Shown one piece after another: positions 3,166-59,014 of a stretch of DNA of 64,000 nucleotides (the first letter of the stretch is position 1; the number at the start of each line of letters is the position of its first letter). The position numbers were made by a program, and so were the translations under genes. Source of the stretch: Octopus vulgaris (taxonomy: Eukaryota); contig OX597815.1 in the NCBI GenBank assembly GCA_951406725.2, forward strand, positions 21,080,001-21,144,000. Direction: 5' to 3'. Under the pieces are notes generated by a model. It had not been told where the DNA came from. It saw nothing but the letters and a program-made list of their open reading frames with translations, and did not search any database.

Positions 3166-3732
3166 GGCGACGAGCTGGCAGAAACGTTAGCATGCCGGGC
3201 GAAATGCTTAGCGGTATTTCGTCTGCCGTTACGTTCTGAGTTCAAATTCTGCCGAGGTCGACTTTGCCCTTCATCCTTTCAGGGTCGATAAATTAAGTAC
3301 CAGTTACGCACAGAGGTCGATGTAATCGACTTAATCCGTTTGTCTGTCCTTGTTTGTCCTCTCTGTGTTTAGCCCCTTGTGGGTAGTAAAGAAATATGTA
3401 TTTTATCTACCGTTACGTTCTGAGTTTGCCTTTCATCCATTCGGGGTCGATAAATTAAGTACCAGTTACGCACTGGTGTTCGATGTAATCGACTTAATCC
3501 CTTTTATCTGGCCTTTTTGTCCCCTCTATGTTTAGCCCCTTGTGGGCAATAAAGAAATAAGAAACGTTAGCACGCCAGGCGAAATGCTTAGCGGCATTTC
3601 GTCTGCATTTACGACTTCTCCTTTCATCCTTTCGAGGTCGATAAATTAAGTACCAGTTGCGTACTGGGGCCGATCTAATCGACTGGCCCACTCCCCAAAA
3701 ATTCTGGGCCTTGTACCTATAGTAGAAAAGAA
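3166..3732 (+). mobile_element. Head-to-tail trimer of SINE family A (Meta-domain-like core)
   Basis: Three successive units (3166-3396, 3397-3560, 3561-3732), each with the core cctt(t)catcc...ggtcgataaattaagtaccag. The first two end in ...aaagaaata; the third has an alternative tail. Confidence 0.85.
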
Positions 3733-8993: not shown

Positions 8994-9262
8994 GGTGGCG
9001 AGCTGGCAGAAACGTCAGCACGCCGGGAGAAATGCTTATCGGTATTTCGTCTGCCGTTACGTTCTGAGTTCAAATTCCGCCGAGGTCGACTTTGCCTTTC
9101 ATCTTTTCGTGGTCGATTAAATAAGTACCAGTTACGCACTGGGGACGATATAATCGACTTAATCCGTTTGTCTGTCCTTGTTTGTCCCCTCTGTGTTTAG
9201 CCCCTTGTGGGTAGTAAAGAAATAGGTATTTCGTCTGCCGCTACGTTCTGAGTTCAAATTCC
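8994..9262 (+). mobile_element. SINE family A, full unit plus partial internal re-entry
   Basis: Full unit to aaagaaata (9224), followed directly by ggtatttcgtctgccgctacgttctgagttcaaattcc, a repeat of its own internal sequence. A degenerate inverted copy lies at about 8785-8955. Confidence 0.85.
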
Positions 9263-10489: not shown

Positions 10490-10721
10490 GGCGGCGAGCT
10501 GGCAGAAGCGTTAGCACGCCGGGCGAAATGCTTAGCAGTATTTCGTCTGCCGTTACGTTCTGAGTTCAAATTTCGCCGAGGTCGACTTTGCCTTTCATCC
10601 TTTCGGGGTCGATAATTTAAGTACCAGTTATGCACTGGGGTCGATGTAATCGGCTTAATCCCTTTGTCTGTCCTTGTTTGTCCCCTCTATGTTTAGCCCC
10701 TTGTGGGCAATAAAGAAATAA
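10490..10721 (+). mobile_element. SINE family A full-length monomer with probable target-site duplication
   Basis: ggcggcgagctggcagaagcg...ttgtgggcaataaagaaataa, flanked by accattcctaaag (10473-10485) and accattactaaag (10725-10737). Confidence 0.88.
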
Positions 10722-11199: not shown

Positions 11200-11935
<736 letters not shown>

Positions 11936-12299: not shown

Positions 12300-12582
12300 C
12301 TTTTACTCTTTTACTCTTTTACTTGTTTCAGTCATTTGACTGCGGCCATGCTGGAGCACCGCCATTAGTCGAGCATATCGACCCCGGGACTTATTCTTTG
12401 TAAGCCCAGTACTTATTCTATCGGTCTCTTTTTGCCGAGCCGCTAGTTGACGGGGACGTAAACACACCAGCAACGGTTGTCAAGCAATGCTAGGGGGACA
12501 AACACACACACACAAACACACACACACACACAAATATATATACATATATATATATATATACATATATACGACAGGCTTCTTT
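12300..12582 (-). mobile_element. SINE family B, 3' portion
   Basis: Reverse complement of ...ggtgctccagcatggccgcagtcaaatgactgaaacaagtaaaa(agagtaaaa)n tail, with the internal microsatellite. Confidence 0.8.
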
Positions 12583-19712: not shown

Positions 19713-19803
19713 TGCTTACATATATTAACAGATATTCCATACTGAGGGTTTATATCGTCTTGGTATGGTATAACCTCAACAGAGAGCTAGCAAGCTAGCT
19801 AGG

Positions 19804-19868
<65 letters not shown>

Positions 19869-19941
19869 GGATGGATGGATGGATGGATGGATGGATGGAT
19901 GGATGGATGGATGGATGGATGGATAGATAGATAGATAGATA

Positions 19942-20012
19942 TGTTTCTTTATTAGCCACACAGGGCTGCACACAGATAGAACAAATTACAAGGTAGAGCT
20001 TTTCTTTTGAAG

Positions 20013-20048
<36 letters not shown>

Positions 20049-20128
20049 AAGGGGGAGTTTCGATCAAAAGGGATCGTAAAAGGAGAGAAAGAGGACAAAA
20101 AAAGGGGGTTAAAAAAAAGGGGGAGAGG

Positions 20129-20161
<33 letters not shown>

Positions 20162-22072
20162 CAATAGGGATCGTTATCACAGAAATGTCAATATGAAGTG
20201 TAAAGGGGAGGACAGGTGAGGTTTACCCGTGGAAAGAAAAGCCTACGGAAAAGACCACGGTAACCTCGGTCAATGAAGTCACATTTTATATTTCTTTTTT
20301 TTTTTTTTGCAAATAAGCAACTCTCTGTTTTCGATTTCTGGGTTCATAGGACTATGCTCAAGGTGGCTTCGTCATTCATACGTGCCATTCTTGCTACATT
20401 CACCCATCTTTTTTAAAACATTCGCTAGACAAAACTTGCCTCTCTACTCTCACTTTCCTTTTCAAGTGGTACTTGAAGAAGTTGATGAGTGATTGACCAG
20501 AGAGGAAAGTGTTTGTCTCCAATCCTTTCAGACGCGTCCACCAGATACATTCTTTCGCCATAGCCACCAGGATGATGAAAATAGCTCTTCCTTCCCGTTT
20601 GAAGGAAGGAGGCGTGACAATATTGACGATAGACTCAGCTGATAAACCGACTCGTCCCACACGTGACAGCAGTTGTTCGACATAAGCCCACAGGTCGGAA
20701 ATTGTTGGACACTGAACGAGTGCGTGCAGAACGGTTTCGTCGCTCTGACCGCATCTCGGGCAGGTCGGCCCCGTGTTTCTCGAGCCGTGTCTGTAGAGCT
20801 TATCCCGAACGGGTAGCGCTTCTCGGTAGCACTGCCAGGCCAGGGATCTCTGGAAGTTGTCCATGGGCCCTGGCCCGAAAGTCGTCCTGAACAGGCGGGT
20901 CAGGTACTCCTCGTCGACGTCCAGGTTCGCCCCGAGCTCGTCGTCGTACCTCCCCTCCACTAAACCCCTATAGAATGCTTTGGTTGTGTTGAAGTCACTT
21001 AAGGTCGACCCAGGACGGCAGAGTTGCTTGAGAGCAACGCGACACTCGCGGTGCCATTCGCCCTTCCTCGGCCTCTTTTTGATCCACGACTGCAGTTCGG
21101 TCATGGAGACGAGCTGCGGGAAAGCGTGCCTCACAAACGGCGACCACACCTGTTCACCGTCGTCTACATAGAGCCAGAGATGCCGCAGTCTCAGCGCGTG
21201 TCTGCGCATCATCAACCACGGCATGCCCAGCCCTCCTTTTAACGGGTGTTGACAGCAAATGGATCGCCTGACCATCGGGACGCATCCTTTCCACAAGAAG
21301 CGAAAGAGGATGCGTTGTAGTTTGGTGATGGTAGGGTCGGGACAAGGTACGACGGTCAGGCGGTAGTAGATGACGGACGCGATGTACGTGTTCGCCACCT
21401 CCGCTCGACCTTTTAGGGACAGTTTCCTCTCGGCCCATTGCCGGGCGAGAGTGACCACCCTACTCGTTATCTCGTTCCAGTTCTTCTCCACTTGGAGGTC
21501 CGGACCAAACCAGACCCCGAGCAACTCAACCGGGCCGTCGGTCCAGCGTCCCACGACGGAGGCGCTGGTGGACGGCATGGGCTTGCTTCTCCAGGTGCCT
21601 AGTCGCAAGCCCACTGACTTTTCCCGGTTGATTTTCGCTCCTGTCACCGCTTCGTAGTTTTTCAGTGTCTCGCCGACCAGCTCGATGTGCTCGTGGCTAG
21701 ACACTATGACGGTGACGTCGTCCGCGTATGCAGACACGCTCGTCCCGCATCCCAATTCTCGCGGGATGCCCTTAGAGTCGCCAGCTTCCGCAGTAGTGGC
21801 TCAAGAGTCAATACGTATAGAAGCGCCGAGAGGGGGCATCCCTGACGGACCGAACGTGCAATGTTGAAAGGTCTCGATAGATGTCCATTTACGCGAATTA
21901 CCGAACGGATGCCTCTGTACAAGGCAGCTATCCATCCGCGGAAAACGGGACCGAAACCAGCCGCTCTCAGGACTGCCCCCAAGTATCGATGGTCTACCCT
22001 ATCAAAGGCTTTCGATTGATCCAAGTTGATCAGGGCCCCACCCATGCCAGGTTCGTTAACTACCCTGTCTAT

Positions 22073-22075
<3 letters not shown>
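19942..22075 (-). mobile_element. 5'-truncated L1/Tx1-clade non-LTR retrotransposon inserted in (GATA)n
   Basis: RT motifs LDQSKAFDRV, RQGCPLS and YADD, C-terminal CPRC..ETVLHALVQC zinc knuckle, U-rich 3' UTR and AATAAA at the end. (GATA)n flanks both sides (19804-19941 and 22073-22144). Confidence 0.93.
20350..22072 (-). pseudogene. Truncated ORF2 (reverse transcriptase plus zf-RVT) of the Tx1/L1 element, with frameshifts
   Basis: ORFs 21704-22045 and 20400-21755 join via a frameshift near 21770. A second apparent 1-nt shift in an A-run near 20410 restores the ending KRWVNVARMARMNDEATLSIVL*. No endonuclease domain is present. Confidence 0.88.
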
Positions 22076-22145
<70 letters not shown>

Positions 22146-30616: not shown

Positions 30617-31018
30617 TCTTTTTATTCTTTTACTTGTTTCAGTCGTTTGACTGTAGCCATGCTGGAGCAACGCCTTTAGTCGAGCAAATCGTCCTAGAAC
30701 CTATTCTGTGTAAGCTTAGTACTTATTATATCGGTCTCTTTTGCCGAACCGCTAAGTTACGGTGGCGTAAACTCATCAGCATCGTTTGTCAAGCGATTTG
30801 GGTGGGGGGGCAAACACAGACACAAACATATACACACATACATATATATATATACGACGTGCTTCTTTCAAATTCTGTCTACCAAATCCACTCACAATGC
30901 ATTGGTCGGCCCGATGCTATAGTAGAAGACACTTGCCCAAAGTGCCACGCAGTGGGACTGAACCCGGGACCATGAGGTTGGCAAGCAAGCTATTTACCAC
31001 ACAGCCACACCTGCGCCT
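30617..31018 (-). mobile_element. SINE family B, full-length copy
   Basis: Reverse complement ggcgcaggtgtggctgtgtggtaa...ggttcagtcccactgcgtggcactttgggcaagtgtcttc...gaaacaagtaaaagaataaa. Confidence 0.85.
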
Positions 31019-31046
31019 ATGTATGTGTGTGTATATACAGACATAC

Positions 31047-48177: not shown

Positions 48178-50077
48178 CGTAAATATATATATATATATAG
48201 TATAAGAAAAAGAAAAATAGAAGTGTAGACGTTACTTTATTCTAAGTTGGTACATATATCCAACAAAATCTCTACAAGTTGTTTCCAACCTTAATTAATT
48301 CAAGACAAAACGAAATATAATCCGTTTAAATCACAAATTAGGCCTTTCCTCGGGAATTCATTATTGGAGTGAATGGGTTCTACCAATAAAAATATAAAGA
48401 CCTTTACAATAGCCCAGAAAGGAGCAAGCAATTAAATTATAATAGAAAGAAATTAACCGAACCCCCAGACCGATCAAAAACAGAAAAATATATAAATCCA
48501 TTTCAGCGTTAATTCAAATGACAATTCACAATATGTAAATACGTGTTAACGACATTTGCAATTATATATAACGGTGCTTTTAACGAGCTACCAGCATGGG
48601 TACCGGTTACGCAACACTGGCATCAGTCACGACTACGATTTCATTACGAGTGGTGTGTGGTAAGAAGCATGTTTCCCAACCACATGGCTTCGAGTTCAGT
48701 CCCTCTGTATGGCACCTCGAGCAAGTGTCTTCTACTATAGCCTTCTACTATAGACTTGTGAGTGGATTTGATAGACAGAAACTGTGTTGTATGGTTGCCA
48801 GGAAAAATCAAAGTGACAATATGAGCCTTTAGCCTTCAACATGAGAATGAGTCCCTCTTGAAAAAGGCAAATCTAAATACACCGACTGGTGCCAGGTCGA
48901 CACTGAATCGATTGAAAAGACACTTTAATGCCACTGTCATTTTAATTCTAGAACAAAAACAAAATTAATTTTCCCCCATTCTCTAAACCCTACCATAAAA
49001 ATAAATGCAATTTTTCGTTCACATTTTTTGTCGCTCTTTTATTAGTTTTTATCATTTTTCATTTGGTTTAACTTTTCGAGGCAGCTCACATCTAAACTAA
49101 TCAATTGTTTAAAGATACTTCGATTAGTTATGGTAATGTGCGACATATTTCTCGCCTCCCGTGCTCGCAGATAACATCATCTGGTATTATATTCTAAGAT
49201 CACGTTTCTCCCCTTTTGTTTGCTTACACATTTTGCATTCGTGACTTCTGGTGTATTCCTCTGATTATGATGATTCGTTGCGGTTTGATCTGGGTGACTA
49301 AATATGCATGATTATTTCGACTTCGAGAGGCATTTGTTTACTAATATTAAACATATATACACATGTGTGCGTGGTGTGTGTGGAGGAGTGTAATATTACA
49401 TTGTATACTATCATAATATATAACATATATATAGTTTACATATAATATATATTCATGTCGACATATGTACATGCATGTATGTATACACTAAATATGTATA
49501 TAATATCGCACTTACATCGTTGAGAAAGTAAATTAACCACCTTAAAACGCAAAAAACTGTAAAATTTACTGATCATTTATATTCCAATGTGTCAATTTCA
49601 TTCGCCTCTCTATACACACTATATATAAGCATACATACATATATACATTACTAAGGATATATCATAAACAATTAATAATTATTTATGAATAAATTACATA
49701 AAAGAAGAGTGTTTATAACGAAGAGGGTTGCAAAAGCCCTTACATGTTTAGAAATAACAGTCAAAAACCACTATAAAGCCACTATTATCACTCATATTTT
49801 ATTTCCTCACGAACGACATGACATATAAAATCCACTATTTAAAAATAAAAGATTAATTCTCTATTGCAATTTCGAAACAATATAACGATTCCATTCTTCT
49901 CATCATAGATACAAATTGATACAAATTCACACCCTGGGGCTAAATGTATCTCGACCGGCAATAATAATATGTCAACCTCTATCTACGTACTCAAATTCTG
50001 AATTCGAACGTCATGCAAGGGGTTTTGCAACCATCTTCGTTATAATTGTGATTTATTCATAATTATAAACACTCTTC

Positions 50078-50230
50078 TTTCAGTTTCCGTCTACTAAATC
50101 CACTCACACGGCTTTGGTCAGCCCGAGGCTATAGTAGAAGACACCTGCGCAAGGTGCTGCGCAGTGAGACTGAACCTGGAACTATGTGGTTGGGAAGCAA
50201 GCTTCTTACCACACAGCCACGCCTGCGCCT
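50078..50230 (-). mobile_element. SINE family B 5' half next to a long (GATA)n/(GACA)n tract (50231-50648)
   Basis: Reverse complement ggcgcaggcgtggctgtgtggtaagaagcttgcttcccaaccac...gtagacggaaactgaaagaag. Confidence 0.85.
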
Positions 50231-50635
<405 letters not shown>

Positions 50636-58525: not shown

Positions 58526-58575
<50 letters not shown>

Positions 58576-58578
58576 CTG

Positions 58579-58613
<35 letters not shown>

Positions 58614-58655
58614 CATGGAACATATGGATGATATATATTGTTTACATATATAACA

Positions 58656-59010
58656 AGGAGTGGCTGTGTGATATGGAGTAGCTTGCTTACCAACCACATG
58701 GACCCGAATTCAGTCCCAATGCGTGGCACCTTGGGCAAATGTCTTCTACTATATCTTCGGGCCGACCAAAGTCTTGTGAGTGGATTTGGTAGACGGAAAC
58801 TGAAAGACGCTTGTCGTATATGTGTGTGCGTGTGTGTGTATGTGTATTTGCGTGTCAGTGTTTGTCCCCCACCATCGCTTGACAACCGATGATGGTGTGT
58901 TTACGTCCCCGTAACCTAGCGGTTTGGCAAAAAGACCGCTATAATAAATACTAGGCTTACAAACAATAAGTCTTGGGGTCGATTTGTTCGACTAAAAAGG
59001 CGGTGCTCTA

Positions 59011-59014
<4 letters not shown>
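58656..59014 (+). mobile_element. SINE family B, near full-length copy
   Basis: ggagtggctgtgtg...gcgtggcaccttgggcaaatgtcttc...(TG)n...cgcttgacaaccgatgatggtgtgtttacgtccccgtaac...ggcggtgctctagca. Confidence 0.85.

Follow-up and report, generated by a model that had tools for sequence, protein, structure and literature searches.

The 3' tail of an octopus SINE is common to a radiation of L1-clade, Tx1-like LINEs, one of which targets the SINE and probably copies it

The 58-nt tail of SINE A, an abundant short repeat of Octopus vulgaris, is common to a radiation of L1-clade, Tx1-like LINEs. The SINE is probably copied mainly by one of these, family S, whose own insertion site lies in the head of the SINE, and not by family A, the LINE found together with it in the window (the whole stretch of 64,000 nucleotides that we analyzed).

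Results

The window contains a young, 5'-truncated copy of family A, an L1-clade, Tx1-like and (TATC)n-targeting LINE (19942-22075, minus strand), and within it an ORF2 remnant on the same strand runs from the RT to the zf-RVT domain, its frame broken by frameshifts. The 3' tail of this LINE (19942-19993, minus strand) is composed of a TGT/pyrimidine tract, a hairpin with the sequence AGCC-ctgtgt-GGCT (19954-19967, minus strand) and AATAAAGAAACA. It adjoins a (TATC)n/(TCCA)n microsatellite, the target at the 3' junction (19803-19941, minus strand), and the other half of the target, (TATC)n, lies at the 5' junction (22076-22143, minus strand). A 231-nt copy of SINE A (8994-9224, plus strand) consists of a tRNA-like head with box A- and box B-like motifs, a body and a Tx1-like, apparently LINE-derived tail of about 58 nt (9167-9224, plus strand) whose hairpin, GCCC-cttgt-GGGT, is at 9200-9212. 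In a second copy, a GGGC-AATAAA variant (10490-10720, plus strand), the hairpin reads GCCC-cttgt-GGGC (10696-10708).

Global alignment of the LINE tail (19942-19993, minus strand) with the SINE tail (9176-9224, plus strand) gave 39 identities in 49 positions and one 3-nt gap, reproducing exactly the hand count in the original prediction, and the hairpin described there just before the A-rich end was seen in both elements. In a blastn search of the window, the LINE tail matched only four SINE tails and itself (E 1.6e-6 to 8e-4). Among three SINE copies of the window, the best match reached 40/49, above every one of 200 dinucleotide shuffles of the LINE tail (mean 25.9, maximum 35 of 49), and a chance match was therefore rejected. 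A stray SINE fragment at the end of one LINE copy was also rejected, since the tail was present at 28 of the 30 family A loci recovered with an ORF-only query, a set that includes the window copy. Thus, the tail is not lacking from most copies, one of two outcomes that the prediction had named as speaking against itself. The other, a better fit to a different LINE clade, was not seen either: downstream of six randomly sampled RT hits of other kinds, no match to the tail was found (scores 16-19). In a scan of 464 kb, made up of the window and 400 kb taken at fixed positions, which is insensitive because family B was missed by it, all clear tail matches were SINE A or family A, along with two weak unrelated ones. 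The LINE and SINE hairpins showed no unusual folding stability in six folds (z -0.03 to -1.35), and the minimum-energy fold of the 49-mer from the SINE copy at 10490 is a different structure. Folding energy was thus rejected as support for the hairpin because it was not significant.

Full-length relatives of family A have an ORF1, in which a CCHC knuckle was recognized by eye, and a stop-to-stop ORF2 of 1149 residues with the order APE-RT-zf. PF03372, PF00078 and PF13966 domains were found in the family A ORF2 protein (P0002). Its best PDB match by sequence was human L1 ORF2p (E 1e-53; R2, E 3e-20), and the nearest named homolog was a sequence of Argonauta hians (69%, with 47% of the query covered). 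Family A is therefore an L1-clade non-LTR retrotransposon with an APE, an RT, a C-terminal zinc motif and a separate ORF1. Target-sequence preference, a trait of the Tx1 clade, is present in both family A and family S. We use the label Tx1-like rather than Tx1 because no named Tx1 reference sequence was among the homologs returned. Genome-wide, 6,933 of 7,787 exact family A tails precede TATCT (89%), and 19 of 24 distinct 5' junctions, read by eye, lie in (TATC)n. Family A is thus a microsatellite-targeting family, as Kibi and Koshi are described to be (PMC4494074). Its median divergence was 1.2%, a figure from a biased, best-hit set, and copies with a long open ORF2 exist.

The families were surveyed by a zf-RVT search and two protein searches, for which 60 and 30 loci were cut and 60 more of the places listed were fetched. 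Among these loci, more than a dozen L1-clade, Tx1-like families were recovered. Their targets include microsatellites, namely (TATC)n, (TC)n and (ATT)n, as well as U1 snRNA, the head region of a further SINE-like repeat and various other repeats. At the C-terminus, a dozen or more sister ORF2s with different targets are 45-75% identical. Nearly all readable family ends showed a TGT/pyrimidine tract, a short hairpin and then AATAAAGA-like letters. A Watson-Crick stem of at least 3 pairs was present just before the AATAAA box in 21 of 23 representative tails, as compared with 6.1 expected from shuffles; for family M the position of the box was set by eye, and in two families no such stem was found. 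We used this test because the permissive one, which allows G-U pairs, was weak (30/34 vs 19.2 expected). The stem letters vary among the families (GCC/GGC, CCC/GGG, ACC/GGT, CCT/AGG, AATC/GATT and GATT/AATC). In a MAFFT alignment of the 23 tails, two-sided changes occurred at all four stem pairs and 75% of cells paired, against 26-49% when the positions were slid, values that are controls and not probabilities because the tails share ancestry and the structure was derived from these same sequences. The covariation check proposed in the original prediction thus revealed compensatory changes, and these data support the view that such changes have conserved the hairpin across families. The tail is a property of the whole radiation and extends beyond the family in the window.

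Several other features of the radiation were observed. At one locus (L251:796-959), a match to the full U1 snRNA (Rfam E 8.6e-32) begins immediately behind a Tx1-like tail; this may be a U1-targeting family, of which one copy was seen. Another family (L344-L348, L350, L351, L353-L357), young and with copies in which a long ORF2 is open, occupies a single position within the tRNA-like head of a different abundant repeat (12 ends read), and its tail has 26 nt in common with SINE A, exact in 10 of the 12. Sister families on (TC)n and (ATT)n were found at L151-L162 and at L248, L257 and L260. Further Tx1-like families (L186, L225-L237, L245, L246, L254) each precede one recurring target sequence, and those of the targets that were scanned had no convincing match in Rfam. 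At many loci (L264-L299), a Helitron-like 3' end, a hairpin with CTAG followed by (TA)n, lies behind family D tails and was either captured or targeted by family D; the same end also lies behind two other upstream sequences. A supposed short element with a Tx1 tail was rejected, as it proved to be a Helitron-like 3' end.

SINE A is short, non-coding, high in copy number (83,868 exact tails genome-wide) and flanked by target duplications, as SINEs are. Duplications of 13-21 nt were found at most full-length copies, and among full-length copies off the preferred site they were found at 20 of 31 (median 16 nt). The head has a box A-like motif at position 11 and a GTTCAAA motif at 75; a strict box B pattern had no match in it, and neither ARAGORN nor Rfam matched a tRNA in the element. 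The 3' end of the copies is precise, at AAAGAAATA, and poly(A) is absent. The commonest variant carries AGTAAA, and the variants retain the stem, with G-U or G-C as the closing pair. Other repeats in the window, at 12309-12542, 30659-31020, 50074-50359 and 58527-59014, are probably further SINEs, and an inverted pair lies at 11241-11371 and 11676-11808.

Median divergence of SINE A was 5.3% in a random sample (n=31). Older relatives with the same head and body but without the tail were 14.1% diverged (32 pieces), so the tail most likely moved from a LINE to the SINE. The 3'-terminal sequence is shared between SINE and LINE, as in a stringent SINE/LINE pair. Taken together, these comparisons support the derivation of the SINE tail from the L1-clade, Tx1-like lineage. 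The tail is a mosaic of best matches to several families; over its upstream 26 nt, families G and M are identical to it. Four search patterns yielded no LINE whose tail equals that of the SINE among the 1, 6, 30 of 189 and 30 of 119 matches inspected, and neither did a fifth among 20 of 20. Since family C reaches 45/49 and G and M agree fully over those 26 nt, the actual tail donor may be extinct or unsampled.

We then compared the insertion sites. Genome-wide, 39,027 of the 83,868 SINE tails precede GGTAT, and GGTATTTCG is SINE A's own position 48 (in the window copy, GGTATTTCGTCTG at 9041-9055, plus strand, the site of both family S and SINE A tails). Such a joint is seen directly after the tail of that copy, where a head fragment begins at position 48 (9225-9262, plus strand). 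At 137 SINE ends, from loci chosen independently of the downstream letters, 54 were at site 48, 9 at position 14/15 and none at TATCTATC; of the remaining 74, 44 had TAT at +3 to +5, against a background of 3.6%. An older head piece of the tail-less type (10.1% diverged vs 6.2%) lies behind 9 of 120 full-length SINE copies, and at one locus (L449) a truncated tail of 14 nt sits within a SINE head and is accompanied by a 14-nt duplication; these cases indicate independent insertion at site 48. (TA)n insertions were also among the SINE A sites.

Both self-insertion sites are represented in a SINE A cluster in the window (3166-3684, plus strand), where a full copy extending to 3396 is followed by a site-48 fragment, a truncated tailed copy to 3559 and a piece starting at position 14/15. 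This second site (window 3560-3684; also L064 and L090) was used mostly by the GGGC-AATAAA variant. The 184-bp units of SINE arrays at L416-L418 and L452-L455 have private variants in common, pointing to local amplification, and the GGTAT count is therefore inflated by local duplication. At most joints between a tail and site 48, the stub that simple target-primed insertion would leave from the first 62 nt of the target is missing. This could be explained by overwriting, by homologous 5' joining or by read-through copying, the majority sequence of the SINE having no stretch of four T. Of 200 joints, 69 are whole units whose 5' flank is unique.

A pattern for non-SINE ends before site 48 gave 520 matches, 30 of which were inspected, and a distinct LINE family, S, was present in 5 of the 30, with ORF2 homology upstream in four of the five. 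With a LINE-only query, 40 S copies were obtained and 37 new ends fetched; 36 of these begin with the site-48 motif, one having a readable stretch of just six letters. A target-free pattern for one S variant, applied genome-wide and read by eye, placed 78 of 82 S tails at site 48, and three of the four off-site tails also begin NNTAT. The apparent shortfall among exact S tails (21/81) arises because many targets read CGTAT. Over the last 30 nt of the SINE, S matches 26-28 positions and family A 23; over the last 49 nt, S matches 41-42 and family C 39-45, so that some copies of C exceed S. In a phylogeny built from 28 rows and 158 columns, with less than half of the columns filled in two of the rows, S clusters with C, D, E and R (100/98) and apart from family A. 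The GCCC/GGGY hairpin of the SINE is carried by C, D and E, and family A falls outside that subclade. Median divergence from the majority sequence was 4.5% for S1 (n=23) and 4.4% for S2 (n=15) vs 5.3% for SINE A, the LINE ages being biased because they derive from best-hit sets. S therefore shares a site profile and an overlapping age with the SINE, as in a stringent pair, with about half of the SINE tails off-site. S is rare, with 81 exact tails vs 83,868 for the SINE. The four long S copies that were read are all broken by frameshifts or deletions, and no intact copy was seen among the copies read. At two loci (L481, L483), the sequence in front of the S copy is SINE sequence that reaches as far as positions 106-112. 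This exceeds the length of a target duplication and suggests that template switching or homologous joining took place at the 5' end.

Discussion

The original prediction paired the SINE with the LINE at 19942. Its assignment of the tail to an L1-clade, Tx1-like lineage was supported, and its choice of partner was not: only 243 of 83,868 SINE tails (0.29%) precede TATCT, vs 89% of family A tails, so the site profile is not shared. Family A is disfavored as the partner because the SINE is almost never in (TATC)n, because family A lies outside the subclade with the GCCC/GGGY hairpin and because its sister S shares both the tail and the insertion nucleotide with the SINE. In the mechanism that we propose, S ORF2 would bind the tail of a Pol III-transcribed SINE RNA, presumably by recognition of the hairpin by the RT, and would nick GGTAT- or NNTAT-like sites, where reverse transcription of the SINE RNA would be primed. 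SINE A would have originated when an older tail-less SINE with the same head acquired a Tx1 tail, and the 184-bp arrays would have expanded, through local duplication or read-through copying, out of joints between a tail and site 48. A limit on S as the helper is that roughly half of the SINE tails precede letters other than GGTAT, whereas S is about 95% site-specific.

The strongest rival, which we regard as unlikely but worth weighing, is that SINE A is a generalist passenger. Part of its copies would have been moved by each of several Tx1-like families with the same tail layout, among them S, C, D and others that may be living or extinct, and pairing of the SINE RNA 3' end with the target would help to choose the site. 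It would account for a tail layout common to the radiation, for the mosaic of best matches, for downstream letters that differ by SINE variant (AGAA follows 9 of 19 GCAAT tails vs 1 of 43 GTAGT tails) and for insertions at site 14/15 and in (TA)n, which are not S sites. However, the NNTAT core of the S site is kept at 44 of the 74 off-site SINE insertions, three of four off-site S tails start in the same way, and 19 family C ends showed no GGTAT preference, all of which argue against this rival. Family A could still be the helper if the RNA end, and not the endonuclease, set the SINE site. Its tail matches at 39/49 (older A subfamilies at 40-41 of 49), and it is abundant (7,787 tails) and has long open ORF2 copies. 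Nevertheless, we consider this very improbable given the scarcity of SINE tails before TATCT, a hairpin unlike the SINE's and best hits that are younger (the biased median of 1.2%); in addition, the target is reportedly set by the endonuclease (PMC4494074). The tail could instead be a relic of Tx1 origin whose hairpin and AATAAA serve 3'-end processing of the LINE, with the RT taking the SINE RNA without reading them. AATAAA is the usual polyadenylation signal, which fits such a role. The relic reading is also consistent with the thermodynamically weak hairpins, with AGTAAA in the commonest SINE variant and with the ascription of SINEU to Tx1-Mar in spite of an unshared tail (PMC4494074), but it is the least credible of all, as SINE ends are precise and lack poly(A), the stem is kept in the variants and copies with the tail are far younger than the relatives lacking it (5.3% vs 14.1%).

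A closed loop can be envisaged, which we put forward tentatively and with somewhat more doubt than belief: a Tx1-like LINE targeting the SINE head gave its tail to the SINE, and the SINE then hijacked the LINE, came to exceed it in number by about a thousandfold and in doing so multiplied the landing sites of the LINE. Such a loop, if true, would be the first animal pair of L1/Tx1 type with stringent hairpin recognition, set in a radiation with one tail architecture and many rapidly switched targets. The SINE A/site-48 system would explain tens of thousands of head-to-tail SINE joints in the genome. With sister ORF2s whose tails are known and a single passenger SINE, both the recognition of tails and the switching of targets become directly testable by swaps. 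SINE A may be one of the octopus SINEs OK, OR1 and OR2. These are tRNA-derived (Ohshima and Okada 1994, as cited in PMC4758252 and PMC4824008), and the relevant parts of those two papers give no partner LINE for them; the partners named there for mollusc SINEs are CR1 or L2. Thirteen active L1-Tx1 families are counted in PMC13282606, with no SINE pairing given in the part available. In the literature, we found no description of an animal SINE/LINE pair of this sort; the sequences in Repbase, Dfam and SINEBase lay outside the search.

Fixed targets are known for the APE-bearing Tx1 families Kibi, (TC)n; Koshi, (TTC)n; Keno, U2 snRNA; and Tx1L, Tx1D (PMC4494074). The families described here have fixed targets likewise, (TATC)n, (TC)n, (ATT)n, U1 snRNA and a SINE head, and (TATC)n, U1 and SINE heads are not among the targets named in the available part of PMC4494074, the families being compared by target only. 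In crocodilians, SINEU was assigned to the Tx1-Mar family by a shared target and overlapping age (Kojima 2015, PMC4494074). As with SINE A and S, the target there is another mobile element and insertions are in tandem. SINEU differs in having snRNA heads, poly(A) and a Mariner target, whereas SINE A has no poly(A) and is targeted at its own head; moreover, the 3' half of SINEU-1 was reported to resemble no Repbase LINE (PMC4494074), whereas the SINE A tail is shared with LINEs. L1-clade LINEs are a stated exception to tail sharing: among 58 tabulated SINE/LINE pairs, three are L1-tailed, all of them plant or algal and none animal (Ohshima 2013, PMC3747384). An animal case with a covarying hairpin therefore bears on whether stringent 3'-end recognition was ancestral in the L1/Tx1 group. 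The L1-tailed SINEs ZmSINE2 and ZmSINE3, with LINE1-1_ZM, and SINEX-3_CR, with L1-1_CR (PMC3472496, PMC3747384), resemble SINE A in that a 3' end of about 50 nt with a compensated hairpin is shared with an L1-clade LINE. The octopus case differs from them in its animal host and in a LINE lineage that is target-specific.
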